From Gammaproteobacteria bacterium (GTDB lineage: Bacteria > Pseudomonadota > Gammaproteobacteria > UBA4575), in assembly GCA_965222615.1 (NCBI GenBank), contig CBDCUI010000008.1, positions 416,001 to 480,000 of the forward strand: a DNA stretch of 64,000 bases. The letters run 5' to 3'. The notes beneath the pieces were generated by a model, which did no database searches, was not told the origin of the DNA, and saw only the letters and a program-made list of their open reading frames with translations. A program made the position numbers and the translations under genes. Below, piece after piece: positions 18,536-39,344 of this stretch. Positions within the stretch are counted from its first letter, which is position 1. Each line of letters begins with the position of its first letter.

Positions 18536-18568
18536 TGAATGATCGCTACGGCCTATAGCGGTCATTCA
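18536..18568. repeat. cassette-type palindrome A1
   Basis: tgaatgatcgcta-cggccta-tagcggtcattca; contains the TGA stop of 18562..18906. Confidence 0.7.
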
Positions 18569-18906
18569 TACGGCTGAGTAGATAATGAATTTTGGAGTCG
18601 CTGTTGTTTTTTTTCTAGTTGGTAACCTATTTTTCCATGTATATGACTAATCGCTACTACTGTAATTAAAATAATTATATTAGCGATAGTGATAAGCGTT
18701 GTTTCTGGTTTGCTAATATATTCTCGATTTAGGTAAATCATGAAAGGGGCAATAATTATCTCAATACAACCAATTATTGCGAGCACTAATATCAACAAAA
18801 TAAACCCAGAGAATACCGAAGATTCAAAAACACTCCAATATATGAAAGATGCCAATAAAAAAAATGCTGTTAGAATAAAGATCTTAGAAACTATAGATAG
18901 ACGCAC
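18562..18906 (-). CDS. hypothetical membrane protein (about 3 TM segments), cassette-like gene
   Basis: Hydrophobic segments, AT-rich, bracketed by palindromes A1 and A2. Confidence 0.6.
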   Translation of the reverse strand: MRLSIVSKIFILTAFFLLASFIYWSVFESSVFSGFILLILVLAIIGCIEIIIAPFMIYLNREYISKPETTLITIANIIILITVVAISHIHGKIGYQLEKKQQRLQNSLSTQPYE

Positions 18907-18921
18907 GTTGATGTTTCTGTT

Positions 18922-18954
18922 TGAATGCCTGTTTTGGGTCGTTTGCAGCCATAA
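18922..18954. repeat. cassette-type palindrome A2
   Basis: tgaatgcctgttttgggtcgtttgcagccataa, same orientation as A1. Confidence 0.55.
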
Positions 18955-18969
18955 ATATATAAAGGCTAA

Positions 18970-19626
18970 TTACAAAATACTTGCTAAATGTCCGTTTTGG
19001 CCTTTGATTTTGTTGGTGTAATGTAGTTCAAAGTCGTCGATTATGGATTTTTGCACAGAATCTAAATTTAGTAGATTGTGTTTCCACTTATTTAGCTTGG
19101 GAAAGTCGTTCCAGTCTAATAACTTCAGTTTCTCGTTCATGAAATCTAGTCGAATTAATAACGGTGCATAAGCAGCATCGATTAAAGCCAGCTCTTCACC
19201 ATTAAAGTAAGTTGAATGGTCTAATGTATCTTCGACACGCTGTAAACGTTTCACACATTCACTCATTTGAGTTTTCATATCTTTTTCATCTTTATGATTA
19301 GCGATCATATAAAGATCAGCTAAACAAGTACCGCCATATTCAATCCAAGCCCGATTTTTTGCCAGTGTAAGCGGATCAGAGGGCTTTAACGTCCCTGGGG
19401 TTACATCGTCAATAAACTCATTAATTACTGCGGATTCAAATAACACTTCGTGGTCATCTACTTTCAATACAGGTACTTTGCCTAATGGTGAAATCTTCGA
19501 GAACCAATCGGGAGGGCTATTTAAATCAATAAAGGTAATTTTATAGTCGCAGTTTTTGTGGTTTAGTGTAATAACACTGCGTTGCACAAACGGACATACA
19601 TTAAAGCTGATTAGTTCTAAGTCCAT
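18970..19626 (-). CDS. glutathione S-transferase family protein
   Basis: CPFVQR, SPLGKVPVL, LFESAVINEF. Confidence 0.95.
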   Translation of the reverse strand: MDLELISFNVCPFVQRSVITLNHKNCDYKITFIDLNSPPDWFSKISPLGKVPVLKVDDHEVLFESAVINEFIDDVTPGTLKPSDPLTLAKNRAWIEYGGTCLADLYMIANHKDEKDMKTQMSECVKRLQRVEDTLDHSTYFNGEELALIDAAYAPLLIRLDFMNEKLKLLDWNDFPKLNKWKHNLLNLDSVQKSIIDDFELHYTNKIKGQNGHLASIL

Positions 19627-19687
19627 AATTATTAGTATGAATGATTCACAAGTGCGGCATTATACGCAATACAAGTAGAATAGAAAT

Positions 19688-20077
19688 ATGAGTGCAGGCG
19701 AAAAAATTCGAATAGACAAATGGCTATGGGCCGCACGATTTTTCAAGACGCGGGCATTAGCCTCAAATGCTGTAAATGGCGGTAAGGTGCATGCAAATGG
19801 GAAACGAGTTAAATCTTCGCGGTCGGTGTGTGTTGGAGATAAATTAGAAATTAGTCGTAGCCACTCCCATGTCACTGTAATGGTAAAAGCTTTAAGCGAA
19901 AAACGTGGCCCTGCAAAACAAGCGCAAATGCTTTATGAGGAAACTAGTGAAAGTATAGAGAAACGTGAGTTAAATGCTCAGCAAAGAAAATTGCTAAATG
20001 CGGGACTGCCACAAACAAAAACTAGACCGGATAAACGTCAAAGACGCCAATTACGCAAAGTAAGCGGTAAGCTGTAA
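19688..20077 (+). CDS. hslR: ribosome-associated heat shock protein Hsp15 (S4 domain)
   Basis: RIDKWLWAARFFKTR, RGPAKQAQMLYEET, RPDKRQRR. Confidence 0.95.
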   Translation: MSAGEKIRIDKWLWAARFFKTRALASNAVNGGKVHANGKRVKSSRSVCVGDKLEISRSHSHVTVMVKALSEKRGPAKQAQMLYEETSESIEKRELNAQQRKLLNAGLPQTKTRPDKRQRRQLRKVSGKL

Positions 20078-20348
20078 TAAAAATATAATCGATAATTCAT
20101 TTGTCACATAAGTAGTTAATAATAACCTACTAATCTTTAATTAAATTATTGCCGTAACTAAAGATATATTGATTATTTTTGTGTAATAAACTTCACTTGA
20201 CGCAAAGATGACGTTAAGAGCAATATGGAAAAAAACAAAAAGGTCGTGTTTCGATCAAGAAAACCATGTTTCAAATATGGTTATAAGTAAATTGTTCTGA
20301 ATGCGATAAGTTTTAGTATAAATACATTCAAAAAAACAAAGGCAGTCG

Positions 20349-20948
20349 GTGAATTTTGTGAGTTGGGTAAACAGTTCATTGCATATCAATAAACTTTTAT
20401 TTGCGTGGTTAATTTTTCTGTATGGTACATGCCTTTGTGCCGACTTCAGTGGTACGACTCAGTTCAAAGCCTATACAACTGAGTCTCTGAAACCTGGGTA
20501 CAAACTGTACACCGATAAGCAAGATCGATTCAGTGCAGCGCAACCGCTTGGATGGGATGTTAATTTTCCAAGTCCTCCCTCGGATGGAGTGATTTTCTCC
20601 ATACAACCCTCTACTGATAGCAATGAAAATGTTGCGGTAAACGTTTTGGTTACACCTCCAGCAACAAATATTATCGAAGTTGCAGAAGCGACTGAAAACT
20701 ACTTGATTAATCAATCTGGTGTTGAAAAATTTGAACTGAAAAATGATCAAGATATTTCGCTATCAGGAGCAATAGGTGTTGAGCGAAGCGTTACCTTTGA
20801 ATTAAATGGTATACCGCTCTATGTGCGTACTTTGTATTTGCAACATTCTGCATACACGTTTGCACTAAGTTTTACTACTGGGGCAGATAATGTTGATAAT
20901 ATGAATTCTACTTTTGAACACATAATTCGGAATTTCACAATCATGTAA
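20349..20948 (+). CDS. exported PsbP/DcrB (DUF1795)-like protein
   Basis: N-terminal hydrophobic segment; Y..FS..P.GW start and F..II.NF end typical of the PsbP-like fold; start uncertain. Confidence 0.6.
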   Translation: MNFVSWVNSSLHINKLLFAWLIFLYGTCLCADFSGTTQFKAYTTESLKPGYKLYTDKQDRFSAAQPLGWDVNFPSPPSDGVIFSIQPSTDSNENVAVNVLVTPPATNIIEVAEATENYLINQSGVEKFELKNDQDISLSGAIGVERSVTFELNGIPLYVRTLYLQHSAYTFALSFTTGADNVDNMNSTFEHIIRNFTIM

Positions 20949-20956
20949 TTTAGTTT

Positions 20957-21169
20957 ATGAATACTGGTTATATTATTGGTCGCATAGTTGGTTTATTTAT
21001 TTTTCCTTTAATAGTTATGGGAATAATAGGTTTATTTCAATATGTGCGAACTAAAGATAAACAGCTTGCTAAGCGAACCATGTTTTCATGGTGGTCAATA
21101 GGATTGGGTATTGTGTTGCTAGTACTTGGGGTAATTGGCCAGATGGCAAATAATGTTGGGGAATTGTAG
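20957..21169 (+). CDS. small 2-TM membrane protein
   Basis: Two hydrophobic helices; 8 bp after the upstream gene. Confidence 0.7.
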   Translation: MNTGYIIGRIVGLFIFPLIVMGIIGLFQYVRTKDKQLAKRTMFSWWSIGLGIVLLVLGVIGQMANNVGEL

Positions 21170-21213
21170 AAAGCATTTTGAAAAATTTATTTTATTAAGA
21201 TTATACGAAGATT

Positions 21214-21702
21214 ATGAAGGTTGATTTTCTAGAATCGCAATCAAACGTTGGTTATCTGAATATGCCTATTCCTATGGAACGAGATAATCAAATTGCAGAA
21301 GTAGTTGGAGCAATAGATTCAGTTGAAGATTTTGCGCGAGTTAATTCGACGATTGAGAATCAACACGACAAGGTTTTGCGTGTATTCGCTGAAAGAATGG
21401 CGATGCGAGCAGTGCGGGAAAACAACCCATCCTATATTAAGCTAGGTTTTCTCGCAGTTGTACTTAGTTGTAACTCTTATGAAGAACGTGAAGCACAACT
21501 GATCCTACCATTGCTTTCTAGAGCAGCAGAGTTAATAGATCTCAATCCCGATTCAATTACTGAGGAGGTCATTAGTTTAGTAGACGGAGAGGCTCAGCAG
21601 TTTTTGCAGTCTTTTTTATCACGTAAGGACAAGTCTATTGAGTCAATGGGGTACTGTGAAAAAATGGATGATGATGGGTTCAAGTTTGTACGGCAGTGGT
21701 GA
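21214..21702 (+). CDS. putative toxin immunity protein
   Basis: Acidic, helical 162-aa protein directly upstream of the toxin. FAERMAMRAVRE and SIESMGY...GFKF resemble genes I recall next to Rhs-type toxins (unverified). Confidence 0.55.
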   Translation: MKVDFLESQSNVGYLNMPIPMERDNQIAEVVGAIDSVEDFARVNSTIENQHDKVLRVFAERMAMRAVRENNPSYIKLGFLAVVLSCNSYEEREAQLILPLLSRAAELIDLNPDSITEEVISLVDGEAQQFLQSFLSRKDKSIESMGYCEKMDDDGFKFVRQW

Positions 21703-21724
21703 TCAATCAATAGTCAACAAAAAA

Positions 21725-23353
21725 ATGATTTTAGTTAAAAGCAAACATCGAAACCTAGGCACCGTCAGCGTTGAGTATTCATTGGTGATGGCGATTACAC
21801 TTACAATCGTAATTGCTGCAGCTCAAGCGATGAATCCAAATATGGAGAGTTTCTTTGAGGCCGCTGCGACTAAAATAGAAAACTTTCTTGGTGGTGGTAG
21901 TAGCAATGTTAATTCTACTCCAGATTTAGATACAGAAACCTATGACTATGAAGTTAAAGCCGCCGATGCCAGGGCGCTAGAGCAACAAAGATTAGAAGCG
22001 GCTCAAGGTGGACAAGACACTGGTGGGGGTGGTGGATTCTGGAGTAAAGCTTGGGGGGCTACCAAACAAGTTGGTGGTTTTTTCAAAGGTGTTGGTGAAC
22101 AAGGTTGGGATACCGTAGTAGGTCTTGGAACACTTGCCTACGATGTACAGAGATTAACAGGGCCTACAGCACTTATATACGAAGTTTTCGATCCGGAAGG
22201 CCAGGCTGCTCTTAGGAATAAATACGCTCAGGTAGGGCAGGCAATTTGGAATAATCCTGGAGATGTAGCCTATGCCATTGTCGAACCTATTGTTACCGAC
22301 TGGAAAAATGGTAACTATGGTGAAGCCATCGGCCGTGGTACTTTTGAAGTGGCTACTGCCATATTTACGCCTACCAAACTCGGCAAAGCCGGAAAGATCG
22401 GTGATGCGGTCGAAGACATTGCCGGTGCCGCCAATGCCGTAGATAACGTTGTTACCAAGGCGGATGACATCAGTGATGCGGGACAGGTTGCGGGTAAAGT
22501 TGACGATGTAGGTAGGCTGAATGTCGATGATCTTTTAGGTAATCCAGATGACATTGTAGTGCTTGGTCGCCAGCCAGATACTGCAGTGGCTAAAGACTGG
22601 CCTGGTCATGTAATTTTAGATGTTCCGGCAGATCAATGGTCTATCGCACTAAATGATGCGTTTATCGAAGCTGCCATTAAACAACGTCGACGTATATACA
22701 TTGGAAGTCCAACTACTCGCCCAAATCTATACGATGATGTTGCTGAACGTCCTACAGTATTTGGTCGCGAGATGGAGCAATTACGCAACGCGGGTTATCG
22801 GCAAGTTGGCGATTATATGGAACCTCCAGATACTGGGGGTGTTGCATCTAGAATTGATAATTCTTTAACGGATGAAGCTTTACCTACTGATCCGCCCTAT
22901 AACCCACGAGAAACAAGAGACGCATTAGAAGAGCGATATGGTGCTGAAAATGTAGAATCTACTACTGTTCCAAATGCTAACGCCAAGAATGTAGAGCTTG
23001 CTGGTCAAAGACATCCTGAAACGGGGATTGTGTTTGATCAACGTGGTTTTCCAATATTTGATGATGTAGCAAAGTACGATACTCGTCTGTCAGCTGATGA
23101 GTTTTCTTCTGCAAGTTATAGAGGTCAAATGCGTATGGCTACTCGCGAGCTTCGTGATGCGATTGATAATGGACAAATTCCTGCTTCTCAGTTTACTAAT
23201 GTGCAGTTGAGAGCAATTCGAGCAGGGAAAGATAAAATTCCAGGCTATACTTGGCACCATCACCAAGATATTGGAAGAATGCAACTAGTGCCTGAAGATA
23301 TTCATCGTAGAACTGGTCATATAGGTGGAGAAAGGATGGCTCAAGGAAACTAA
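21725..23353 (+). CDS. polymorphic toxin with N-terminal Flp/Tad prepilin-like segment and C-terminal WHH (HNH/EndoVII) nuclease
   Basis: KHRNLG|TVSVEY plus hydrophobic helix; Gly/Ala-rich pre-toxin region; FDQRGFPIFD and GYTWHHHQD...MQLV...H...GH.GG; ATG 21725 follows the upstream stop. Confidence 0.85.
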   Translation: MILVKSKHRNLGTVSVEYSLVMAITLTIVIAAAQAMNPNMESFFEAAATKIENFLGGGSSNVNSTPDLDTETYDYEVKAADARALEQQRLEAAQGGQDTGGGGGFWSKAWGATKQVGGFFKGVGEQGWDTVVGLGTLAYDVQRLTGPTALIYEVFDPEGQAALRNKYAQVGQAIWNNPGDVAYAIVEPIVTDWKNGNYGEAIGRGTFEVATAIFTPTKLGKAGKIGDAVEDIAGAANAVDNVVTKADDISDAGQVAGKVDDVGRLNVDDLLGNPDDIVVLGRQPDTAVAKDWPGHVILDVPADQWSIALNDAFIEAAIKQRRRIYIGSPTTRPNLYDDVAERPTVFGREMEQLRNAGYRQVGDYMEPPDTGGVASRIDNSLTDEALPTDPPYNPRETRDALEERYGAENVESTTVPNANAKNVELAGQRHPETGIVFDQRGFPIFDDVAKYDTRLSADEFSSASYRGQMRMATRELRDAIDNGQIPASQFTNVQLRAIRAGKDKIPGYTWHHHQDIGRMQLVPEDIHRRTGHIGGERMAQGN

Positions 23354-23354
23354 A

Positions 23355-23828
23355 TTGCGTGACGATATAATTTGGGATTCATATTACGGTGAAGGAGATA
23401 TTGGTCTAGTTCAAGACTTTGAAAAGAGTATCAATCAAGTATTACCTACCGAGTATAAAAAAATTGTTAGTAAATACAATGGTGCAGTTCCTGAGCCGGA
23501 TGCACTTAAGTTTTACAGTCGCCTTGTAAAAAAAGAAGTGGTTATTGGTGTTGGGGTATTTCTAGCTTACGGCAATATTGAGTCACCATCTGAAACCATG
23601 GAATGGAGCTACACGAATCGACCAGAAAACTTTCCTAAGAATTTTATTGCGTTTTCTCTTGTTGGAAATGGTGACATGATTTGTTTTGATTATAATGACG
23701 TGAGCCAAAATCAAGAACCGAAAATTGTGATATGGCATCATGAAGCAAGTCAACCTGAAGAGCTCTTTTCACCATTAGCGGATAATTTTTCTAAATTTCT
23801 GGATGTGATATTTTTTGAGGAGGATTAA
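23355..23828 (+). CDS. SMI1/KNR4 (SUKH) family immunity protein
   Basis: FEK...LPTEYK...YNG, GNGDMICFDY...PKIVIWHHE, LADNFSKFL; directly after the toxin (TTG 23355, alternative GTG 23325). Confidence 0.92.
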   Translation: MRDDIIWDSYYGEGDIGLVQDFEKSINQVLPTEYKKIVSKYNGAVPEPDALKFYSRLVKKEVVIGVGVFLAYGNIESPSETMEWSYTNRPENFPKNFIAFSLVGNGDMICFDYNDVSQNQEPKIVIWHHEASQPEELFSPLADNFSKFLDVIFFEED

Positions 23829-24107
23829 TCGGGAACTTCGTATCCAAAGGTAAAAAAACTTATGCGCTTTTTAAAGTGTTCAATGGGCTGACTACAGATG
23901 GAAATCTCGCATGTTATGCGGCTGCACCGTTAATCAATGAGGATTTCGATCTAAGCTATTATTTTGAATTGTAGTAGCTTGGTAGGTTATATGTGTTAAC
24001 TAATATGGTAGTACTAGTAGCCAGACGAGCATTAATGTCGAAAGACATCTGAGATAATAGGTTTAGTAAACGTAAATTGAGAGGGTAGGGTCTAAAGACC
24101 AGTCAAT

Positions 24108-24941
24108 TTATTCAAGTATTTTAAATTGAATAACAGATTTTTTGCCATCTCTTACGGGTTCCCCCATACACATCACACCATCAGAGATAAGAGTTTGTTC
24201 GTTTTTAGACACATGAATTTTTTGACCGTTATTAAATTTTATATATGTGCCATTGTAGCTTTCATCTTGAAGCAGGAATTTGCCTTCTTTACGTATAATT
24301 TTTGCATGTGCTCTAGAGACATATTTGCCTTGTACGATAATGTCACAGCTTGGGTCTCTGCCTACGTGGAAAACATCTTGTTCCTCAGATAGTACGTGTT
24401 TGTCACCTTTAAAGGATAGTTCAATGGTGGCTTTATTTTTTTTCTCCTTCTCCTTCTCCTTCTCCTTCTCCTTCTCTATTTCTAGAGGTGGTAAATTTTC
24501 TTTAGCTATAGGTTCAGCATCCAGTTGTTCAGGTTGTTTGGTTTCGATGGCATTTTTATTGGCATTCGTTTGTTTTTCCTTAGCATCAGAACTATCAGTA
24601 TCATCTGTTTGAGTAAGAATCTGAGATTCTAGGTCTTTTATAGAAGCATCGATTTGAGACGCTGGGCCTTTTTCTTCCTGAAGTGCTTCTTCCAGTTCTT
24701 GCACCTTGGATTCACTAATATCTAAAGAGGGTTGTACATCACTTAAAGTTGGCGGTATAGGGCGCTTTGAGGACTTAGAATTTTCCCCTGCAGCTTTTTC
24801 TTGTTCTGTATCAGTTTTTGCGATGCGACGATCTACAAGTCTGCGACGATTTTTTGTAACAAGGACCCCGTCACTATCAATAAAAGGATAGGTGACTTTT
24901 CTGCCCCACTTGCGTCGTTCACTATTTCTACGTTCAGCCAT
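24108..24941 (-). CDS. FHA domain protein with Arg-rich N-terminal module
   Basis: VGRDPSCDI, VSRAHA, DESYNGT FHA motifs; acidic linker with EK repeat. Confidence 0.88.
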   Translation of the reverse strand: MAERRNSERRKWGRKVTYPFIDSDGVLVTKNRRRLVDRRIAKTDTEQEKAAGENSKSSKRPIPPTLSDVQPSLDISESKVQELEEALQEEKGPASQIDASIKDLESQILTQTDDTDSSDAKEKQTNANKNAIETKQPEQLDAEPIAKENLPPLEIEKEKEKEKEKEKKNKATIELSFKGDKHVLSEEQDVFHVGRDPSCDIIVQGKYVSRAHAKIIRKEGKFLLQDESYNGTYIKFNNGQKIHVSKNEQTLISDGVMCMGEPVRDGKKSVIQFKILE

Positions 24942-25122
24942 GGTGCTTTAAAGTATATAGAAAAGCTTACAAAGTATGCGGAATCGGCTAACAGTTTAAA
25001 TACCTTAAATTACACATATAGCCAGATGGTAGAAATCTACCGATAATGCGATATGCAGATGGCTATATTTTGAGAATTAACCATTCTGGAGTTTAGCAGT
25101 TTGAAGAATCTGGCGAATAGAG

Positions 25123-25623
25123 CTAAGGACAGAAATAGTGGATAAAATCTTTCTCTACGTACTCGATTGGGGTGCCTAGGCTTACAATGCCACTACCATG
25201 TAAGGTTAATTTTTCACCCATTAAAAATATTTCACCTTCGTCGTTTTTTATATAAGTACCGTTTGTACTGTGATCGGTAACCGTAAATTCTTCATTATCG
25301 TATTCAAATCTTGCATGTTGGCGAGATGTATAGCGGTTTTGAAAGACTAGCTCACAATTTGAAGCTCGACCAACGATTACAGAAGGGGAATCAATTAATA
25401 ACTCACACACGTCATCTTTGTACCAAAGAAATAAGCGCGATTTTGTTGTATCACTTTTCTCGCCACTATGAATTTCTATATTATTAATCCTGCGATCAGG
25501 TATTCGACGCCTATCTTCTCTGACTAAGGTTTGCTCACTATCAAAAAAAGGAAAAGCTGGGCTGTGCATCTGTGCACGGCGATCGCCATGTGTCCTACGT
25601 TCGATTCTTACTTGTGAGCTCAT
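25123..25623 (-). CDS. FHA domain protein with Arg-rich N-terminal module
   Basis: VGRASNCEL, TSRQHA, DHSTNGT FHA motifs. Confidence 0.88.
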   Translation of the reverse strand: MSSQVRIERRTHGDRRAQMHSPAFPFFDSEQTLVREDRRRIPDRRINNIEIHSGEKSDTTKSRLFLWYKDDVCELLIDSPSVIVGRASNCELVFQNRYTSRQHARFEYDNEEFTVTDHSTNGTYIKNDEGEIFLMGEKLTLHGSGIVSLGTPIEYVEKDFIHYFCP

Positions 25624-26170
25624 ATTTGGTCCGCAATCGTGAACTGAATTTTATTGTTGGTATAGATAAATTATACAGACACACCACACTTCGTAAAGTA
25701 TACGAAGAGACGATTATTTGGTTGAATTATAGTTATGTGATGATCAACAGTGACTGGGTAAGCTGGGGTGCCCAAATTTTGAACATTGCATACCCGTATG
25801 TAGTTAGACCTAGAAGTAGCCAAATGGCTAGTAACACTACAGGGGAAATGCGTTGTTCTACAAAACTCGGGATACCTACGCTCTCAACAAGCTGTGTCAT
25901 CGATCTTCCTCTAAAGCTGTATATTGTAAAAATATGTTAAGAATTTTAACACGTTAAACATTAACTTGGTATTAAAGAAAAGTGCATTTTCTGTTCATTG
26001 CTATGCTTTTAGAATAAGGTAAATATTAATAAAGTATGTGATTATGACGTTTGATCTTGCTAATGCGCTGAAAGAAATTCCAGTTCAAACTACAGAAACT
26101 AGATATAAATGTTATTATAACCCAAAGATATTATTAAATAATTTATACAATATTAGTTCCAGCTACAGCA

Positions 26171-27460: not shown

Positions 27461-27491
27461 GTTATTGGTCAAATAATTGAATTAATAATAC

Positions 27492-27983
27492 ATGCAGGAG
27501 GTAGTTGCATATATTGGTTTTGGCAGCAACTTGCAAAATCCTAAATTGCAAATAGAGAAAGCCTTTGTTGAATTGCAAGAGTTAGATAGCACAAGGCTCT
27601 TAGTAACGTCTAGTCTGTACAAAACTAAACCAATGGGACCAACAGATCAGCCTGATTTTATTAATGCTGTAGCAAAAATTTTAACTTCATTGTCTCCAAA
27701 AGAATTATTAACAGAACTGCAAGAAATTGAGGCGCGGCACCGTCGCCAACGAGGCACTCAACGCTGGGGACCCAGAACCTTAGATTTGGATATTCTGCTC
27801 TATGGAAATCTACAAATGGATACTAAACAGCTGCGAATACCTCATTATGGTATTGCAGAACGTGAATTTGTATTAATCCCTTTACAAGAGATAGAAGCTG
27901 ACCTCATTATTCCAGGTAAAGGGATATTGAGCGAGCTGATTGAACAATTACCTCAGTATGAGATGATGAAAATTGAAACATAA
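27492..27983 (+). CDS. folK: 2-amino-4-hydroxy-6-hydroxymethyldihydropteridine diphosphokinase
   Basis: IGFGSN, QPDFINAV, WGPRTLDLDIL. Confidence 0.97.
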   Translation: MQEVVAYIGFGSNLQNPKLQIEKAFVELQELDSTRLLVTSSLYKTKPMGPTDQPDFINAVAKILTSLSPKELLTELQEIEARHRRQRGTQRWGPRTLDLDILLYGNLQMDTKQLRIPHYGIAEREFVLIPLQEIEADLIIPGKGILSELIEQLPQYEMMKIET

Positions 27984-29454: not shown

Positions 29455-29479
29455 AGTTAAAATTATATAAATTATTTAT

Positions 29480-30331: not shown

Positions 30332-30376
30332 ATCAGTATACTTTATGCAAAGAGTTATGTTCGTAAGGAGACAAAT

Positions 30377-30505
30377 ATGTGGGTCTTAGTCGTACTTTGC
30401 TTTGCGTTGGTGTTTATCATTACTGTAATTGGCCAATTAAGCGTATTTAATATGAGTGTTACCGAGCTTATAACATTCAAACGTGTGACGGATGAAAATT
30501 CCTAA
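30377..30505 (+). CDS. 42-aa single-TM small protein (absent from the ORF track)
   Basis: AAGGAG RBS 6 nt before ATG; MWVLVVLCFALVFIITVIGQLSVFNMSVTELITFKRVTDENS; followed by a terminator. Confidence 0.6.
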   Translation: MWVLVVLCFALVFIITVIGQLSVFNMSVTELITFKRVTDENS

Positions 30506-30526
30506 CCAATAAACAACGCATATTAT

Positions 30527-30557
30527 AAAGGGCGCTTTACTAGCGCCCTTATTTTTT
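30527..30557 (+). terminator. intrinsic terminator
   Basis: aagggcgct-ttact-agcgccctt followed by a T run. Confidence 0.8.
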
Positions 30558-30578
30558 GTGCATTACTATTGTTTTATT

Positions 30579-32156: not shown

Positions 32157-32310
32157 TTTTTAGTATTGCTCAATTAAGGCAAGAAATGAGCGTTCAGTTT
32201 ATTCATTAATTTTCATCAGAATTATTTTTTTACTTAGCGTTTTATTAAAAAGACAATGTGCCCTTTAGCATGATGTGATGCGCGGATAAGTGTTGCTATA
32301 TTGGATTTTG

Positions 32311-32338
32311 ATGATTGCTCGAGCCCAAAGTGGACACT
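32311..32338. repeat. cassette-type palindrome D1
   Basis: atgattgctcgagcccaaagtggacact; shares caaagtggaca with C1; TGCTATATT upstream at 32294. Confidence 0.55.
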
Positions 32339-32500
32339 CAACTTGAGAGCTTTTTGAAAATAAACTGATCTTGCTCCCAAAAACAGTGAGGTAATTTTCA
32401 TATCTGACTCATATTGAAACTTTTTCACTTAACATTAACTCAAATGAAATGTAATACCCTAGCCACGGCATTAAAGCTCAAAATTAAAAAGGAAATACCA

Positions 32501-33235
32501 ATGTTGAAAATTTGTTTGAAATTTACCTTTACATTATTGTTTGTTGGGTTGATATTTGGGTTGAATGGTTGCGCTAGCTATACAACGCCAGGGGGAGGAG
32601 TACAGATAAACGAACTCGCAGAAGCAGACATCAACGAATTAATGTCTAAAGAACCAGCAGCAATTTTTCCTGCTAATATTTCAGTTGCACGTGTTCAAGC
32701 AGCAAATTACAGATCACATACTGCTGATAGCTTTGGAACAGGAAGATATAGTGTAGTAACTACCCGTGACGTAGAGTATGAAGAAGACTTCGTATATTTA
32801 TCAAAATTACTTAAAGTGAAAGGTATTGCGCCTGTAGGCCGCATTCTTTTGTCTAAAAATCTGGATAGAATTAAATCATTGAGGGAAGCATCAGCGAGAC
32901 TGAAAGCAGACATTCTTTTACTTTATACGTTTGATACTACTTTCCATGCTGGCGAGCAAAAATTCCTACCACTGAATGTAATTGCTTTAGGTTTTCTAAA
33001 AAATAAGCGAGTATCTGTAACCACAACAGCATCAGCAGCATTATTTGATATACGAACAGAATATTTGTATGGACTAGCTGAAGCAACTTCTAAGGAAAGC
33101 AAATTAGCAAGTGTGTGGAGTTCCGAAAATGCTGTTGATGATTTAAGGCTTACAGCAGAAAGAAGCGCGTTTGAAAAACTTTTACCAGAAATAGAAAAAA
33201 CATGGGGAGGAGTAGTCACTGAATATTCTAAGTAA
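32501..33235 (+). CDS. hypothetical lipoprotein, cassette-like gene
   Basis: AAGGA RBS, signal peptide with LNGC lipobox. Confidence 0.75.
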   Translation: MLKICLKFTFTLLFVGLIFGLNGCASYTTPGGGVQINELAEADINELMSKEPAAIFPANISVARVQAANYRSHTADSFGTGRYSVVTTRDVEYEEDFVYLSKLLKVKGIAPVGRILLSKNLDRIKSLREASARLKADILLLYTFDTTFHAGEQKFLPLNVIALGFLKNKRVSVTTTASAALFDIRTEYLYGLAEATSKESKLASVWSSENAVDDLRLTAERSAFEKLLPEIEKTWGGVVTEYSK

Positions 33236-33250
33236 TTTCGTTTAGACTTT

Positions 33251-33306
33251 CCCATCCAACTTGGTGAGCAACATTGGCCGGCATGTTGCTCACCAAGTTG
33301 GATGGG
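33251..33306. repeat. perfect 24-bp inverted repeat related to the 7073-7218 element
   Basis: cccatccaacttggtgagcaacat-tggccggc-atgttgctcaccaagttggatggg. Confidence 0.9.
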
Positions 33307-33338
33307 TGTCATTAGGAGGTGCTATATTTTAATTTTTT

Positions 33339-33367
33339 ATTGTCGACAGAGACTCAAAGTGGACATA
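33339..33367. repeat. cassette-type palindrome C1
   Basis: attgtcgacagagactcaaagtggacata; TGCTATATT upstream at 33320. Confidence 0.55.
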
Positions 33368-33427
33368 ATTAGATAATCAGTTTGCTAATTTTGTTATGCG
33401 ATTAATTACAAGTATTAGGAAAATAGA

Positions 33428-33718
33428 ATGGAATATAAATTTCAAGTAGAAAATATCAGATGCGGTGGATGTGCAAATACCATTACAAAAAAATTGAGAG
33501 AAATAAACGGGGTAAAGGACGTACATGTAAATGTTGAAGACAAACAGGTTATTGTTACTACCGAGCCAACTATCGATGCCGAAATTCATCATATTCTTAG
33601 TGAAAAACTTGTTAAATTAGGCTACCCAGAAGTAGGAACAATAGGGTCAAATAGTCTCAAGACCAAGGCGACTTCTGTGGTCAGCTGCGCCATAGGCAAA
33701 GTTTCAAACAAAAGTTAA
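33428..33718 (+). CDS. heavy-metal-associated (HMA/CopZ-like) domain protein
   Basis: VENIRCGGCANTI CxxC motif, LGYP, C-terminal VSCAIG. Confidence 0.88.
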   Translation: MEYKFQVENIRCGGCANTITKKLREINGVKDVHVNVEDKQVIVTTEPTIDAEIHHILSEKLVKLGYPEVGTIGSNSLKTKATSVVSCAIGKVSNKS

Positions 33719-33749
33719 GTATGTAAAATGACCGCTAGTGACTGCTACC

Positions 33750-33851
33750 TTAACCGATCGAAGCAACACATTGGCTAAATCGTTCTGCTGGTGTTTCAAA
33801 ATCTAAAGTTTGCCTGGGTCGTTCAATCAATTGCCTAGTGACGTGATTTAA
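33750..33851 (-). pseudogene. IS30-family transposase C-terminal remnant with adjacent IS end
   Basis: Translates LNHVTRQLIERPRQTLDFETPAERFSQCVASIG*, matching the IS30 C-terminal LN.RPRK.L.F.TP.E motif; no start or N-terminal part. Confidence 0.8.
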
Positions 33852-33870
33852 AATTCATAACATTATTAAT

Positions 33871-34935
33871 TTATATAGCGCTGTGTTGTTCTAGCGCCCA
33901 TTCCACATGTTCGCGTACTAATTCACTTGGATGGTTCTGTTTTTCCTTTAAGGCATTAATTACTTCAGTTGTATGAGGTGCGTTACCCAGCGCAACAGCA
34001 ATATTTCTCAGCCAGCATTCATAGCTGATACGACGAATTGCTGAACCTTCTGTGTTCTTTAGAAACTTTTGTTCACTCCATTTAAATAACTCAATCAGAT
34101 TTGGTGCATCTAAATTGTTGCGCGTAACAAAATCTGCAAGCTCGCTTTTTTTCTCGAATCGATTCCAGGGGCAATAGAGTTGGCAGTCATCACAGCCATA
34201 AATACGATTTCCCATCGCCTTTCTAAACTCAACCGGGATGGCTTCTTTCAACTCAATGGTGTGATAGGAGATGCAACGTCGCGCATCTAATTTGTATGGC
34301 CCGATGATGGCCTGTGTGGGACAGACATCCATGCATGTGCTACATGTGCCACAATGATTTTCAACTGGTTCGTCAATGGGCAAAGGCAAGTCTGTGTAGA
34401 GTTCGCCTAGAAAAAACCAAGAACCACATTCGCGACTGATTAAGTTGGTGTGTTTTCCAATCCAACCAAGTCCAGCTTTTTCTGCCAAGGCTTTTTCTAA
34501 AACAGGTGCGCTATCTACAAAGGCTCGATAGCCAAATGTACCGACTTTGGCTTCGACACGTTCAGCCAATTTTTGTAAACGCTTGCGAATAACTTTGTGA
34601 TAATCACGTCCTAATGCATAGCGCGAAATATAAGCTTGGTTTTTGTTTGCTAATACCTCTTCTTCATTTTTTGCATCTGGCGCTTGATAATTGATGCGAG
34701 CAGAAATGATGCGAATCGTACCAGGAATTAATTTTTCTGGTTGAGAACGTTTTGTGCCATGTTTGCTCATATAGTCCATGCTTCCATGGTGATTGGCTGC
34801 TAACCAATTTAGTAAATGCGTTTCATGGTCATTCAACTTAGTATCCGTAATACCAAGTTCATCAAATCCAAGTGCTTTCCCCCAGGATTTTATTTGTTGG
34901 GCTAATTCGGAAAAATCTGAAATCGATGGGTTCAT
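33871..34935 (-). CDS. queG: epoxyqueuosine reductase
   Basis: SRYALGRDYH, VDSAPVLE, CGTCSTCMDVCPT, YGCDDCQLYCPWN. Confidence 0.97.
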   Translation of the reverse strand: MNPSISDFSELAQQIKSWGKALGFDELGITDTKLNDHETHLLNWLAANHHGSMDYMSKHGTKRSQPEKLIPGTIRIISARINYQAPDAKNEEEVLANKNQAYISRYALGRDYHKVIRKRLQKLAERVEAKVGTFGYRAFVDSAPVLEKALAEKAGLGWIGKHTNLISRECGSWFFLGELYTDLPLPIDEPVENHCGTCSTCMDVCPTQAIIGPYKLDARRCISYHTIELKEAIPVEFRKAMGNRIYGCDDCQLYCPWNRFEKKSELADFVTRNNLDAPNLIELFKWSEQKFLKNTEGSAIRRISYECWLRNIAVALGNAPHTTEVINALKEKQNHPSELVREHVEWALEQHSAI

Positions 34936-34987
34936 TTACCTAAATGTTGCATTTATGCTTCTGACTATGCTTACGTAGTATTCAATT

Positions 34988-36478
34988 ATGTACGACATTC
35001 CTAAAGAAATTTATCTCGCAAAACAAGTCCGTGAACTGGATTGCATTGCTATTGAGCAGTTTCAGGTACCTAGTTTTACCCTAATGCATCGAGCCGGGCA
35101 GGCTGCCTTTGAGGTAATACAGGAAATTTGGCCAAATACTCAAGAAATTATCGTATTAGCTGGAGCAGGCAATAATGGTGGGGATGGCTATGTCATTGCC
35201 AGCTTGGCGCTGACGGCAAATATTCGAGTAACGGTTGTCCAAGTAGGCGATCATACAAGGCTTCAAGGAGATGCCAAACAAGCTCACGACCTATATGTTG
35301 AACAAGGCGGTCAATGCAATACGTTTAAACACCAGCCGTTACCGGATTGCGATCTAATCGTGGATGCCTTGTTGGGCACGGGGATTACTCGTTCTGTGAA
35401 AGATGATTTTAAGGCAGCAATCCAATTGGCTAATGAGCATAGTGCCCCAGTTTTAAGTGCAGACATTCCCTCCGGTTTGGATGCGAATCGTGGAATTCCA
35501 CTTGGAGATGCAATAATTGCCGATGCCACGGTTAGTTTTGTTGGTATGAAGTTAGGCTTGCTTACCGGAGCAGGCAGGAAATACTCAGGTAAAATATATT
35601 TTAGTGATTTACAAATTCCAAAAGAAGTTTATCAGTCTATGAGCGCAACCTGCCATAACATCGATCTTGCCGATTTGCATGAAAAACTAGGTCCGCGTAG
35701 TGCAAGTGCACACAAGGGAGATTTTGGTCATGTAGTATTGATTGGGGGCAATCAAGGTTACGCTGGTTCTATCATGTTGACTGCAGAAGCGGCATTAAGA
35801 GTAGGAAGTGGTTTGGTATCTGTGGCTACACATCCAGCAAATGCAGCTGGGGCACAGCATTCATGCCGAGAAGTAATGGCGCATGCTGTCTCGAATGTAC
35901 GAGAACTCGATGCATTATTAAAACGTGCGACGGTAATCGCAATTGGTCCAGGGCTTGGACAAGACCAATGGGCACGAGATTTATTTATGCGTGTTTTAGA
36001 TTTTGATTTGCCGTTAATACTAGATGCCGATGCCCTAAATTTATTGGCACAAGAACCGCTGCAAAAAGATAATTGGGTGTTAACTCCCCATCCGGGTGAA
36101 GCGGCTCGCTTATTACAAAAAGAAACAACAGAAATTCAACAACAGCGCCTTGAATCAGTTCAACAACTGCAACAACAGTATGGTGGTATCGGCGTATTAA
36201 AAGGTAGTGGTACGTTAATTGCCTGTAGCGAACAGGTTTCTATATGTACGGCAGGTAATCCAGGTATGGCCACTGGCGGTATGGGTGATGTGCTAACAGG
36301 TGTTATTGCTGGGTTAGCTGCACAAGGTCTCAATACTTATGATGCAGCGAGATTAGCTGTGCAATTGCATGCACAGAGTGCAGATATAGCAGCACAACAA
36401 GGCATGCGTGGAATACTTGCCAGTGATTTGTTTTCACCTTTGCGTACCCTTGTTAATGTTAATGCACCATGCAATTAA
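34988..36478 (+). CDS. nnr: bifunctional NAD(P)HX epimerase/dehydratase
   Basis: GAGNNGGDG, DIPSG, HKGDFG, LTPHPGEAARL, GGMGDVLTG. Confidence 0.96.
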   Translation: MYDIPKEIYLAKQVRELDCIAIEQFQVPSFTLMHRAGQAAFEVIQEIWPNTQEIIVLAGAGNNGGDGYVIASLALTANIRVTVVQVGDHTRLQGDAKQAHDLYVEQGGQCNTFKHQPLPDCDLIVDALLGTGITRSVKDDFKAAIQLANEHSAPVLSADIPSGLDANRGIPLGDAIIADATVSFVGMKLGLLTGAGRKYSGKIYFSDLQIPKEVYQSMSATCHNIDLADLHEKLGPRSASAHKGDFGHVVLIGGNQGYAGSIMLTAEAALRVGSGLVSVATHPANAAGAQHSCREVMAHAVSNVRELDALLKRATVIAIGPGLGQDQWARDLFMRVLDFDLPLILDADALNLLAQEPLQKDNWVLTPHPGEAARLLQKETTEIQQQRLESVQQLQQQYGGIGVLKGSGTLIACSEQVSICTAGNPGMATGGMGDVLTGVIAGLAAQGLNTYDAARLAVQLHAQSADIAAQQGMRGILASDLFSPLRTLVNVNAPCN

Positions 36479-36912
36479 TTGGGCCAAGTGCCACTGAAGC
36501 CTTAGGTGCAAAGGTCGCAAAATATTGCTCACCTCCTGTGATTATTTATTTGATTGGTGAATTAGGCAGTGGTAAAACGACTTTCGCGCGTGGATTTATT
36601 CATTCACTTGGCCATACCGGCAATGTCAAAAGTCCCACGTTTACTTTAGCCGAAACCTACAACCTTAACGGCGTAACGCTTTATCACTTTGACTTGTATC
36701 GTCTGCAGGATCCAACAGAACTAGAGTATTTAGGCATACGAGATATCGCAGCAGAGCCGGATACAATTTGCCTCATCGAATGGCCACAGCACGGTGGTGA
36801 GGGTGTACCCAAGGCCGATTTATTGTTTACCTTTGAGCACCAAGGAGAGAATCGATCAGCGTCGTTCCAGGCCAAATCCTCTCGTGGACAGTCCATTATC
36901 AGCCAATTATAA
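36469..36912 (+). CDS. tsaE: tRNA t6A biosynthesis ATPase TsaE
   Basis: GELGSGKTTF, VKSPTFTL, HFDLYRL, IEWP. Confidence 0.96.
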   Translation: MQLIGPSATEALGAKVAKYCSPPVIIYLIGELGSGKTTFARGFIHSLGHTGNVKSPTFTLAETYNLNGVTLYHFDLYRLQDPTELEYLGIRDIAAEPDTICLIEWPQHGGEGVPKADLLFTFEHQGENRSASFQAKSSRGQSIISQL

Positions 36913-37032
36913 GGTCAGACTATAAAAAATTGCCCTAGGTCATTAGTTTTATTAAAGTTGTTGTTGCAATTTTATAAAAATTTGTCACACTTTCTCCACG
37001 GTTTCAGGATCTTAGGTCGCTCACCTTCAAAT

Positions 37033-38436
37033 ATGCAGCCATTCAAAAACCTAAATTTGCCTACAAATTGGGTACACCAGCGTTATCGGCTTTGGTTTCA
37101 ATTACTAGCTTTATTGTTGTGCTTGACTAGTTATTCAGTTCTTGCGGCCACTGGAATCACAAAAATAAACGATGTGCGCATCGCCGATCGCCAAGAGAAT
37201 ACGCGAATCGTTTTTGATTTATCATCCGCTACCGATCATCACGTATTTGTACTTAGAAATCCTGATCGAGTCGTACTTGATATTGATAATTGCAGTGCCA
37301 ATGGCAAGTTAAATACGACTCGAGTTGCAGGAACTTTGTTAAAAGAAATGCGCTATGCACAAAAGTCGGGTGAGAAATTACGCGTGGTATTTGATTTAAA
37401 TAAAGCGGTAGTTCCAAAGAGTTTTTTGCTGGCACCCTCTAGCAACAATAATCATCGTTTAGTAATAGATTTAACCGCGGCTAATGCAGCACCAGGTACA
37501 AGTAAATCAGTCATATCTGCAAAAACTGCTCCAGTCATTGAGGCTAAAGCGATTCCAGAAAATTTCCGTGATGTTGTTATCGCGATTGATGCTGGGCATG
37601 GCGGTAAAGATCCTGGTGCAATTGGTCGTGGTGGAACGCGCGAAAAAGACATTGTGCTGTCGATATCAAAACGACTTAAATCTCTTATCGATAAAGAAAA
37701 AGGTATGCGCGCTGTCTTAATTCGAAGTAATGATTCTTTTATTCCTTTAAGAGGCCGAATTAAAAAGGCAAACAAAGTGAGTGCAGATGTATTCATCTCT
37801 ATTCATGCCGATGCTGCAGTAAATCGTAATGCGCGTGGCTCGTCGGTATATGTATTGTCACAACATGGCGCAACCAGTGAAGCAGCACGGATCTTGGCAC
37901 AGCGTGAAAATGAAGCCGACAAAATTGGTGGTGTGAGTCTGGAAGATAAAGATGCGGTCCTCAAATCGGTATTAGTCGATTTATCTCAGACGGCAACGAT
38001 TGATGCCAGTATTGATTTGGCAGAAGACATTCTCACAGAGTTGGGTCAAGTGGGGAGAGTGTTACGTAATCGTGTGGAGCAAGCGGGTTTCGCAGTATTA
38101 AAGTCCCCGGATATTCCATCGGTGTTAGTCGAAACGGCCTTCATTTCTAACCCACAAGAAGAAAAGCGCCTTAAAAACAGTAAACATCAACAAGACTTAG
38201 CACAGGCAGTGTTAAAGGGCTTGCGCCGTTACCTGAAAGATCACTCTCCTAGTGACGCATTGCTAGCGAATTTAGGTAGGAGTAGTCGACATACCATACG
38301 ACGTGGCGAGACCTTATCTGGAATTGCAAATCGTTATCAAGTGAGTATTGTCACCTTGCGCAAAGTAAACGAACTTAAGTCAGATGTAATTCGAGTAGGG
38401 CAAGTGTTGATGATCCCACCTTCGACAGGCACTTAG
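37033..38436 (+). CDS. amiB: N-acetylmuramoyl-L-alanine amidase (AMIN + Amidase_3 + LysM)
   Basis: IDAGHGGKDPGA, SIHADA, VLKSPDIPSVLVET, C-terminal LysM; start uncertain. Confidence 0.92.
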   Translation: MQPFKNLNLPTNWVHQRYRLWFQLLALLLCLTSYSVLAATGITKINDVRIADRQENTRIVFDLSSATDHHVFVLRNPDRVVLDIDNCSANGKLNTTRVAGTLLKEMRYAQKSGEKLRVVFDLNKAVVPKSFLLAPSSNNNHRLVIDLTAANAAPGTSKSVISAKTAPVIEAKAIPENFRDVVIAIDAGHGGKDPGAIGRGGTREKDIVLSISKRLKSLIDKEKGMRAVLIRSNDSFIPLRGRIKKANKVSADVFISIHADAAVNRNARGSSVYVLSQHGATSEAARILAQRENEADKIGGVSLEDKDAVLKSVLVDLSQTATIDASIDLAEDILTELGQVGRVLRNRVEQAGFAVLKSPDIPSVLVETAFISNPQEEKRLKNSKHQQDLAQAVLKGLRRYLKDHSPSDALLANLGRSSRHTIRRGETLSGIANRYQVSIVTLRKVNELKSDVIRVGQVLMIPPSTGT

Positions 38437-38451
38437 TTTCCGCTGATAGAA

Positions 38452-38483
38452 AATGTCTGTTCGCGGCTGATAGTAGTTATTCA
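38452..38483. repeat. cassette-type palindrome B1
   Basis: aatgtctgttcgcggctgatagtagttattca, 11 nt beyond the globin stop. Confidence 0.55.
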
Positions 38484-38494
38484 AGTAACTTGAA

Positions 38495-39280
38495 TTAGCT
38501 TTTCTTTTTTGCTCTTTGAAGCTGCATGGATTCGATCATGGTTGAAAATTTCTGGTTTAACTCATTTTTTAGATCATCCTCAATTCCTACATTGGTCATG
38601 GCGATATTCATACAGTGCAGCCACTGTTGTTTGTTTCTTTCGCTTAATTCGAATCTACGATGACGTAATTCTAACCAGGTAATATTTACATACTGTTCTC
38701 CAAATAGTTCAGGTCCACCCAGCCAGTGAGTGATAAATTTAGCTAAGGCTTTTTTTGACATAAATAAGTTTTTCGGATGTAAGTCTCGCAACTCTTTTGC
38801 AAAAGGCTCTTTTTCCATTGTATCGTAAAACTCACTCGTTAATTCTTGCACCTTGGATAAACTACCAATTTTCTCAAACAACGATTCCTTTTTAACTGAC
38901 GCTTCCCCTGTTTCAACTATATCGGTTTTTGTGCTTTCGAATAAATCTAAAATCTCTTCTCGTTCTCTACTAGGAACCTTATGTCTATCCAATGTGTCTG
39001 CAACATAGGTGATAAAGATAAGCCAATCTTTTTGGGTAATACCCATGTCCTTATGCGCAGTCTTATTATCGCGTCCTGTATAATGCTCTGGTCCACCGGT
39101 ACTTGAGCACAAATAGTCAAGAAGGTATTCTTTATTTTTATTTATTCCATCTTCACATTTGCATTCCCAGTACTTACTCAATTCAGGGTCTGCTATAATT
39201 TGTGAGAATAAATTATTTGTGATTGTAGAAATCGTTTCACGACCACCTAATCTTGAATATAAAGTGCTGTCGTTGCTCAT
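38495..39280 (-). CDS. tandem truncated hemoglobin (group I-like + group II-like domains)
   Basis: TLYSRLGG...TGGPEHYTGRD..TAHKDMGIT, then SLFEKIG...FYDTM...WLGGP...LRHRRF...WLHCM. Confidence 0.85.
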   Translation of the reverse strand: MSNDSTLYSRLGGRETISTITNNLFSQIIADPELSKYWECKCEDGINKNKEYLLDYLCSSTGGPEHYTGRDNKTAHKDMGITQKDWLIFITYVADTLDRHKVPSREREEILDLFESTKTDIVETGEASVKKESLFEKIGSLSKVQELTSEFYDTMEKEPFAKELRDLHPKNLFMSKKALAKFITHWLGGPELFGEQYVNITWLELRHRRFELSERNKQQWLHCMNIAMTNVGIEDDLKNELNQKFSTMIESMQLQRAKKKS

Positions 39281-39313
39281 TACCAGTATTCCTTACGTTT
39301 CTATGATAATAGG

Positions 39314-39344
39314 AATGTCTACTTTGGACCGCAAGTAGTCGTTA
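39314..39344. repeat. cassette-type palindrome B2
   Basis: aatgtctactttggaccgcaagtagtcgtta, same orientation as B1. Confidence 0.6.

Follow-up and report, generated by a model that had tools for sequence, protein, structure and literature searches.

Short palindromes around single accessory genes in uncultured gammaproteobacteria: a cassette-like layout that is not an integron

We analysed a 64-kb stretch of DNA, hereafter the window (C8:416001-480000), from the 3.1-Mb genome of an uncultured gammaproteobacterium (G000; 9 contigs, 39% G+C), in which imperfect palindromes of ~30 bp flank single accessory genes. These sites lie in three intervals between convergent core genes; the layout that they form with the enclosed genes is cassette-like, and it is not an integron. 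Our preferred reading, to which we give even chances, is that the sites are decayed members of a family of repeats resembling repetitive extragenic palindromic (REP) sequences and bacterial interspersed mosaic elements (BIMEs), and that they are the ends of modules, serving as preferred breakage and joining points for accessory genes in hot spots. For comparison we used a family panel of 56 genomes of uncultured gammaproteobacteria, sampled at the species level with one genome per species, of which G001, from the same genus as G000, and G002, G006, G007 and G014 served as the five relatives for locus comparison. Open reading frames (ORFs) are crude calls, not gene predictions, and those of at least 90 aa were used to count the placement of sites. 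A covariance model of the palindrome, R1, was built from 21 intact aligned copies, four of them from the window, which match R1 by construction; G000 was scanned with R1 at E ≤ 10, and the family panel was counted at E ≤ 0.01, with at least 112 scored matches for the richest genomes.

The initial annotation of the window had described eight sites, at 6992, 18536, 18922, 32311, 33339, 33727, 38452 and 39314. Their sequences are as described, and R1 recovers all seven full ones with E-values from 2.6e-6 to 0.93, the last being that of the weak site at 33339. The genome scan with a covariance model, also proposed there, gave 54 matches in G000 that merge into 39 places dispersed over many loci; seven of these fall in the window against 0.81 expected (Poisson P 2e-5), and the centres of all 39 lie outside ORFs, though such ORFs cover 87% of the genome. 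The unit consists of arms of ~11 nt around an asymmetric loop of 8-10 nt (AATGWCCGCTW-loop-WAGCGGWCATT), ~30 bp in total; an intact copy reads approximately AATGACCGCTAACGACCCAAAGCGGACATT, as at C9:80511. The loop comes in two types, B (AACGACCCAAAG) and A (ATTGGCCGAAAG). Three doublets of paired palindromes are found in G000 (C9:82081-82207, C7:818935-819061 and C9:833009-833134), and TGCTATATT, an extended -10-like box, precedes four of its palindromes, three of them window sites.

The window copies are mostly worn members of a real family, recognised by sequence. Folded as DNA, two of the seven full window sites do better than their shuffles, those at 18536, the best hairpin of the window, and at 6992. 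The hairpin pattern AATG...CATT, put forward as the mark of the family, does not serve as such: at 11-nt arms and up to two mismatches, G000 contains 55 strict AATG hairpins, no excess over those built on other 4-mers; the family is recognised by its sequence and not by the hairpin pattern. Stem covariation in the 21-copy alignment is not above that of shuffles, and we therefore claim no selected RNA structure; nor did Rfam give any known RNA family at the palindromes. The alternative that the sites act simply as terminators finds no support, as none of the seven passes a consensus scan for a stem followed by a T-run; the terminator-like stem at 39338-39353 touches the edge of site 39312 and is a different hairpin. 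A function as DNA uptake sequence was considered and rejected, the 9-mer half site occurring 54 and 62 times per strand against ~39 expected in G000, with 33 of 48 occurrences in relatives lying within palindromes.

The family extends well beyond this genome. R1 matches are present in 37 of the 56 family genomes and in all 15 of genus g7, with 28 copies each in G000 and G001 and at least 112 in several genomes; a first look with the model gave up to ~1000 candidates per genome. An exact-pattern scan of the species collection returned 54 loci, nearly all in metagenome-assembled Gammaproteobacteria, Thiotrichales or Pseudomonadales. The literature searched yielded no account of this repeat, which does not establish that none exists. 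The longest array that we describe lies in G043 between xerD-RDD and lptG-lptF, where 25 sites and ~22 small genes occupy ~13 kb and no site occurs in the core genes or spacers on either side. Its genes encode a globin, OsmC, HSP20, a GNAT protein, an M48 peptidase, an Na/H exchanger and many proteins without a family, and sites on opposite model strands occur within it.

Read in the sense of the genes, the spacers of such arrays have a constant order: a stop codon, an A palindrome, ~45 nt containing TTGGA-N17-19-TAAAAT, a B palindrome, and ~15-50 nt before the next start codon, with B up to ~60 nt ahead of that codon. Since A follows the stop and B precedes the start, each gene sits in a B-gene-A module. 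In the relatives' loci, 107 of 119 sites lie outside ORFs, and 14 of 23 doublets carry TTGGA-N17-19-[TC]WWAATG, the -10-like box overlapping the left arm of B. A start codon on the same strand follows within 60 nt at 25 of 50 B sites versus 4 of 26 A sites, and an A site lies within 40 nt of the 3' end of a gene in 20 of 42 cases.

This order holds in the window as well (Table 1). The B-type sites 18922, 39314, 32311 and 33339 are upstream of the four cargo genes, the A-type sites 18536 and 38452 are downstream of two of them, and the gene for the heavy-metal-associated (HMA) protein is followed by the half site 33727, disrupted by an insertion sequence (IS). Pfam bears out the tandem globin and the HMA protein reported for these modules. 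Sites 18536 and 18922 flank the membrane-protein gene, whose stop codon falls in the right arm of the former; 38452 and 39314 flank the tandem globin, with two stretches of PF01152; and the pair of lipoprotein-like and HMA genes stands at 32311, 33339 and 33727, the last being half a palindrome fused with sequence like that of an IS30-family end. Neither Pfam nor NCBIfam gives a family for the 114-aa membrane ORF, which has no credible homologue in the 55 other family genomes either, the sole match (E 2.4e-4) containing four stops, and it does not occur between the CxxCxxCC and GST genes of G001, G006, G007 or G014; the 273-aa lipoprotein-like ORF likewise has no Pfam or NCBIfam match. Sites 33337 and 32309 have in common CAAAGTGGACA as well as the upstream TGCTATATT. 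The claim that paired sites are direct repeats with one polarity relative to the enclosed gene stands in its second half, B being upstream and A downstream throughout. As to the first half, the R1 strand makes two pairs inverted (18531/18917 and 38445/39307) and only 32303/33332 direct, an assignment that depends on few asymmetric positions. The second kind of spacer on which the reading of 39400..39476 is based was seen in the alignment of the relatives' doublets.

Table 1. Palindromes and cargo genes of the window (window coordinates).
Feature	Position	Strand	Evidence
Gene-free palindrome, long loop	6992..7035	+	R1 6985-7040, E 0.062; nhmmer E 0.005; fold -6 kcal/mol, z -2.84
A-type palindrome, 3' of 114-aa ORF	18536..18568	+	R1 18531-18573, E 7.4e-5; fold -10 kcal/mol, z -4.85
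114-aa hydrophobic (membrane) ORF, cargo of module 1	18562..18906	-	ORF list, translation
B-type palindrome, 5' of 114-aa ORF, 17 nt from GST gene stop	18922..18955	-	R1 18917-18960, E 4.0e-6; fold z +0.92
B-type site, 5' of lipoprotein-like ORF, after TGCTATATT	32309..32341	+	R1 32303-32345, E 0.0068; no longer folds
273-aa lipoprotein-like ORF, cargo	32414..33235	+	Lipobox-like LNGC behind hydrophobic stretch
Weak B-type site between lipoprotein-like ORF and HMA gene	33337..33369	+	R1 33332-33374, E 0.93
HMA protein gene, cargo	33428..33718	+	PF00403, E 5.9e-14
Palindrome left half (33727-33742) with fragment of IS30-family element end	33727..33824	+	81-90% identity to IS30 ends
Decayed A-type site, 3' of tandem globin, 16 nt past amidase (AmiB/AmiC-type) stop	38450..38483	+	R1 38445-38488, E 0.074; no fold
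Tandem truncated-globin gene (261 aa), cargo	38495..39280	-	PF01152, two stretches
B-type palindrome, 5' of globin gene	39312..39345	-	R1 39307-39350, E 2.6e-6; weak fold, z -0.69
Possible decayed half site, then second spacer kind (hairpins, ACGGAT-like loops), between sohB stop and B site	39400..39476	-	By eye, no model score

The core genes of the window, identified by a Pfam search, are ffh, rimM, trmD, rplS, htpG, pcnB, folK, panBC, pgi, queG, nnr, tsaE, an amidase gene, sohB, mutL and miaA, in what we take to be an E. coli-like order. The intervals that hold the sites vary in length between relatives. Between the CxxCxxCC and GST genes, G000 has 730 bp where G001 has 7, G007 20, G006 4 and G014 ~150 bp; between pgi and queG it has 1741 bp, against 31, 5, 14, 20 and 110 bp in the five relatives. 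The amidase/sohB interval of G000 (1028 bp) corresponds to 33 bp in G002, 42 bp in G006 and 127 bp in G014, and to 1.3 and 6.2 kb of other genes in G007 and G001. With the intervals of the relatives short or differently filled, all three cassettes are lineage-specific insertions. Single-site empty alleles, which the initial annotation had proposed to look for in relatives, did not clearly appear. At the three window loci the short gaps of 4-42 bp (G001, G002, G006, G007) contain no R1 match and leave no room for a 30-bp site, and the gaps of 110-150 bp in G014 have at most one weak R1 match (E 0.1-0.69); by the initial annotation's own standard, this counts against recombination of the attC x attC kind. 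In the 6.2-kb insert of G001, R1 matches separate the genes: four reach E ≤ 0.0053, and three are weak (E 0.87-4.2).

Similar hot spots are found elsewhere. The lpxH/DUF455 interval measures 4.56 kb with four sites in G000, 40-75 bp in four relatives and 484 bp in G007, and the dapE/exonuclease interval ranges from 99 bp to 4.9 kb among relatives. In genus g7, the xerD-RDD/lptG interval has 16 bp and no site in G014, 2.7 kb and 5 sites in G032, ~6 kb and 2 sites in G007, and the array of G043 already described, the four species having no cargo in common. Another repeat of ~60 bp stands beside the exonuclease gene (L054:3549-3612 = C9:927049-927112); G007 and G014 have dozens of copies of it, 80-92% identical.

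Several sequence comparisons place the limits of homology at the palindromes. G006 has two copies, ~42 kb apart and 100% identical, of a 496-bp stretch with a DUF488 gene; they agree from the opening base of one palindrome through the closing base of the following one, and the flanks are unrelated, without target duplication. A gene of the metallo-beta-lactamase fold (MBL) together with its downstream palindrome is 88% identical between G000 (C9:833516-834363, L053:5016-5863) and G002 (C90:4798-5645), which belong to two different genera, whereas the flanking core genes are 72-77% identical; the sequence difference hints at a recent transfer of this module. A GNAT gene and the palindrome downstream of it share 81% identity with a copy found in G001 at a different locus. 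For both the MBL and the GNAT gene, homology between the genomes breaks off at the palindrome's far edge. The protein closest to the tandem globin (69% identity) is encoded in G043 among other neighbours; its gene stands beside a second globin gene, and this two-gene unit is flanked by palindromes. As for the excised forms that the initial annotation had proposed to look for in reads, metagenome contigs from sequencing runs, apparently of the same strain, gave no convincing join across a cassette and no alternative allele. The contigs of run X3 match the window exactly where listed; one contig joins 32219 to 33249 with 26 letters on the shorter side, a joint of an artefact-prone kind that no repeat explains.

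The palindromes of G000 are also entered by other elements. One IS110-family element (NF033542, 312 bits, cut-off 140) is located in all five of its full copies between CCCAA and AGCGGACATT of a palindrome, and a partial copy at a contig end likewise lies between CCCAA and AGCGGACA(TT). IS30-family elements and their miniature inverted-repeat transposable element (MITE) are inserted in the palindrome loop: the ~1.26-kb IS30-family element (two copies) and the 285-bp MITE (six copies, of which one is partial) are directly adjoined by palindrome halves. Single-sequence nhmmer searches with sites 33727 and 6992 found more than 20 other places in G000, whose alignment has a common outer part, AATGWCCGCTWWCGRC, and inner parts that are ends of mobile elements; because the outer part is common and the inner parts are IS30-family and MITE ends, the palindrome halves flank insertions. 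In the alignment with these junction copies, the loop of site 6992 contains ~14 nt like the start of the IS30-family end sequence, and at 33727..33824 a joined stretch of ~100 bp matches the IS30 ends at C7:815424 and C9:258065 and a fragment at C9:331341. The transposase of that element belongs to NCBIfam NF033563 (295 bits), and the end sequences resemble the IS30 inverted repeat. G000 looks like a lineage with a recent expansion of insertion sequences into palindromes. It has 11 IS110-family matches of three types, two IS30-family types and the 285-bp MITE, with pile-ups at C7:813-822.9 kb, C9:253-260 kb and C8:0.4-4.7 kb.

The exact duplication, the homology that stops at palindromes and the IS insertions are the reasons for which we take the palindromes as module ends and favoured joining points. 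On this account, B-gene-A modules would gather at hot spots flanked by conserved core genes, convergent for the most part, with complete turnover between species; the palindromes would be the ends at which modules preferentially break and join as they are added, copied or lost; and they may double as expression punctuation, with the spacer possibly acting as a portable promoter. We infer from these arrangements that the palindromes take an active part in the movement of modules, as we do for any enzyme involved. In G000 the system looks largely spent, as the genome retains ~39 sites, five of the seven window sites do not fold, and the palindromes are mainly landing pads for insertion sequences.

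A number of results weigh against the palindromes as module ends. The evidence for recent movement amounts to one duplication in one metagenome-assembled genome. In G000, segments between sites have other copies only where they contain IS or MITE sequence or a 110-bp repeat, apart from one paralogous stretch at 77%, and no duplicated module was found among them. G007 has a homologue of the HMA gene, 78% identical, at a different locus and ~1.4 kb from the nearest site, hence genes and sites are not always linked; the short empty alleles are without a palindrome, and a first insertion at a hot spot therefore needs no resident site. Five window sites form no stable hairpin (fold z between -0.99 and +0.98). 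The loci of relatives that furnished the 119 sites, the doublets and the A and B counts were chosen for holding sites, and since they were picked for having matches, the counts of sites relative to genes are not unbiased. No enzyme for the repeat was identified among the families checked: G032, G007, G014 and G043 have no match to rve, DDE_Tnp_1, TnpB or IS110, G006 has some rve matches only, and Y1 transposases (PF01797) occur in 8 of the 56 family genomes and in 1 of 15 in genus g7. Finally, a host factor that binds DNA or RNA and plays no part in mobility could equally have selected for the high conservation of sequence.

The search for an enzyme bears on each reading. The window has no recombinase among its 40 proteins (Pfam), as had been stated. 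A co-distributed tyrosine or HUH recombinase, suggested as partner of the sites, did not emerge from the families and genomes checked. The complete and palindrome-rich genome G032 (at least 112 matches) has three PF00589 frames of 319, 337 and 411 aa, two of which look like XerC and XerD by score and length, and G010, which is without the repeat, also has three tyrosine recombinases. The only tyrosine recombinase neighbouring the G043 array is a XerD-like gene beside dsbC, and a scan of G000 with an 11-nt arm motif gave nothing clear as a canonical dif site. Among the palindrome-rich genomes checked, one has Y1 genes, and these are not palindrome-flanked; around the six Y1 loci examined, even a cut-off of E ≤ 0.5 gives no palindrome within ~1.5 kb. 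IS110 transposases are found in 8 of the 56 family genomes and in none of the palindrome-rich G006, G007, G014, G032, G043, G002 and G009. RAYT (REP-associated tyrosine transposase), IS110, rve, DDE_Tnp_1 and TnpB were thus rejected as mobilisers, not being co-distributed with the repeat. In G000, C8:549466-550158 (L040:1462-2154) encodes a 230-aa Y1 transposase-like protein, at 71 bits versus the NCBIfam RAYT cut-off of 80; the gene adjoins a 328-aa IS30-family transposase and a small toxin-antitoxin-like pair, and no palindrome of the family is nearby.

A stronger version of our reading, possible but somewhat doubtful, would make palindrome-gene-palindrome a true mobile cassette unit of the chromosome, moved without integron integrase, RAYT or recognisable transposase by a housekeeping (XerCD-like) enzyme or one of a new kind, and with junctions that carry their own promoter, allowing independent expression of each captured gene. 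We regard as unlikely the contrary account, in which the palindromes are expression punctuation only, that is promoter or operator and 3'-end signals for a host factor, while modules move by ordinary recombination in the flanking core genes. The promoter-like spacer of 14 of 23 doublets, with its -10-like box over the left arm of B, the proximity of A to gene 3' ends in 20 of 42 cases, the arms and loop kept across genera in genomes without recognisable transposases, and the empty alleles without sites would all fit such signals. Punctuation does not account for a 496-bp duplicate that ends exactly at the outer edges of two palindromes, nor for homology between genomes that stops at the downstream palindrome; moreover, none of the seven window sites resembles an intrinsic terminator, and the up to ~1000 candidates per genome of the model's first look would far exceed the usual regulon.

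It is improbable, in our estimate, that the sites are selfish repeats of the REPIN type (REP doublets forming hairpins), once spread by a Y1 (RAYT-type) or other transposase that is now mostly lost, and piling up where insertion is tolerated. Such an origin would suit doublets of paired palindromes, which resemble REPINs and BIMEs, a copy number that varies between genera from 0 to at least 112 scored matches, the decayed look of the G000 sites and the Y1 gene of G000, just below the RAYT cut-off. It fits poorly with Y1_Tnp in one of the 15 g7 genomes that all have the repeat, with the absence of palindromes from all six Y1 loci, and with near-identical copies in rich genomes with no enzyme in sight; and the 25 sites in the ~13-kb array of G043, against none in the adjoining core spacers, represent a stricter placement than tolerance predicts. 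Very improbable is the integron-like system supposed by the initial annotation, with a dedicated site-specific recombinase that cuts cassettes out and inserts them at short sites. The cassette-like part of that proposal stands, namely insertions relative to five relatives, B-gene-A arrays and an exact module duplicate, and the array layout, the conservation of gene and downstream site as a unit and the consistent polarity of sites relative to genes would agree with it. The integron-like mechanism does not stand: no integrase is present in the window and G032 has only three tyrosine recombinases, arrays are dispersed over many loci with no attI-like anchor, the short empty alleles have no site, and the sites, as stated at the outset, are ~30 bp by direct reading, much shorter than attC, and without GTTRRRY cores.

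The comparison with known systems places the repeat between several of them. As with REP sequences, BIMEs and REPINs, its palindromes are short, imperfect and extragenic, with tens to hundreds of copies, all 39 in G000 being outside ORFs. BIMEs pair palindromic units Y and Z; here also doublets join two variants through a conserved linker, 23 in the relatives' loci and three in G000. REP sequences carry the tags GTAG or CGTC, whereas the arms start with AATG here, and no Y1 locus examined is flanked by palindromes as that of a cognate RAYT would be. REP sequences are described as targets of IS110/IS1111-type and other insertion sequences (PMC11187229), and in G000 one IS110-family element occupies the same position of a repeated palindrome in 5 of 5 full copies. 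Strain-specific regions of Pseudomonas are described as 'REP deserts' (PMC3390384); in our genomes the sites concentrate in accessory-gene arrays, the opposite.

The nearest working analogy is the dif modules of Acinetobacter plasmids. There, accessory modules lie between plasmid dif (pdif) XerC/XerD sites of ~28-30 bp in alternating orientation, with no dedicated recombinase nearby, and some insertion sequences target these sites (PMC6449649, PMC10132070, PMC13141974, PMC7399989). The likeness consists in site pairs on opposite strands, imperfect palindromes with a central spacer and the same module in two contexts (the 496 bp of G006). Canonical dif sites are of 28 bp, arranged 11-6-11, as opposed to the 11, 8-10, 11 architecture here, and our arms are unlike those of dif by eye; in addition, ours lie on the chromosome at many hot spots and frequently form doublets around a promoter-like spacer. 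As in integrons, including attC clusters without integrase, small unrelated genes, mostly on one strand, stand in arrays with an imperfect palindrome behind each, the gene and its 3' site being a unit of homology. An attC site measures 55-141 bp and has R''/L'' and L'/R' boxes with a GTTRRRY core, whereas the sites here are ~30 bp without R''/R' cores, with promoter-like spacers at many loci, siteless short empty alleles, and neither IntI nor attI. The neisserial dRS3 repeats and the arrays of neisserial intergenic mosaic elements (NIMEs) are short, intergenic, inverted-repeat units targeted by IS110-like recombinases, and 'minimal mobile elements' vary between core genes in those bacteria. 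By description only, the inverted-repeat arrays, the IS110-like targeting and the variable genes between fixed core flanks are similar; the sequence and the bacterial family differ, and the units here bracket protein-coding genes, not non-coding repeat units.

If the palindromes are the ends of mobile modules, they would represent a third way, beside integrons and dif modules, of filing single accessory genes behind short palindromes, one that is chromosomal and uses many hot spots in genomes almost free of insertion sequences; it would then become testable how small genomes without mobile-element enzymes keep exchanging genes. Even on a more modest reading, the repeat is of use as a marker of accessory DNA in a family about which little is known, as a natural set of targets for RNA-guided transposases of the IS110 type, and as a candidate portable element combining promoter and 3' end.

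Other features were noted in the window and beside palindromes elsewhere in G000. A separate repeat of ~110 bp (GCAAGAAGTGAACGTTCAGTTCATT ... TTTCTTTGCTTGTCCAAAGAAAACGAACCAAAAGAAAAGACACCC) occurs in the window at 18246-18385 and 7219-7331, and elsewhere at C9:954659, C9:800024, C7:773961, C7:117416, C7:115106 and C7:790846 along with partial copies, giving at least eight fuller copies in G000; it is also present in G001, G002 and G009, lies 170-400 bp from a palindrome at several loci, and has no Rfam match. Between a palindrome and this repeat lie sub-threshold matches to the TwoAYGGAY RNA motif, at window 7064-7229 (+) and L046:1740-1860 (-; C7:115239-115359), with 41.1 and 36.2 bits for a gathering score of 43. 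A hairpin with a perfect 24-bp stem at window 33250-33310 is related to these matches and has ACCAAGTTGGATGGG in common with the L046 copy. At C7:115555-117069 (L046:2056-3570), among palindromes, the 110-bp repeat and the TwoAYGGAY-like element, is a gene for a 504-aa reverse transcriptase like the antiviral Drt4 and Drt3b models, below their cut-offs; a group II intron beside the palindromes at C7:115 kb was rejected, no intron model of Rfam having matched. Within the window, 21638-23828 holds the gene of a 571-aa protein whose C-terminal domain is a colicin-DNase/WHH nuclease; a SUKH-family (SMI1/KNR4) gene comes next, and the two look like a polymorphic toxin with its immunity gene; downstream of this pair, two adjoining FHA-domain proteins of 277 and 166 aa are encoded at 24108-25623 (-).

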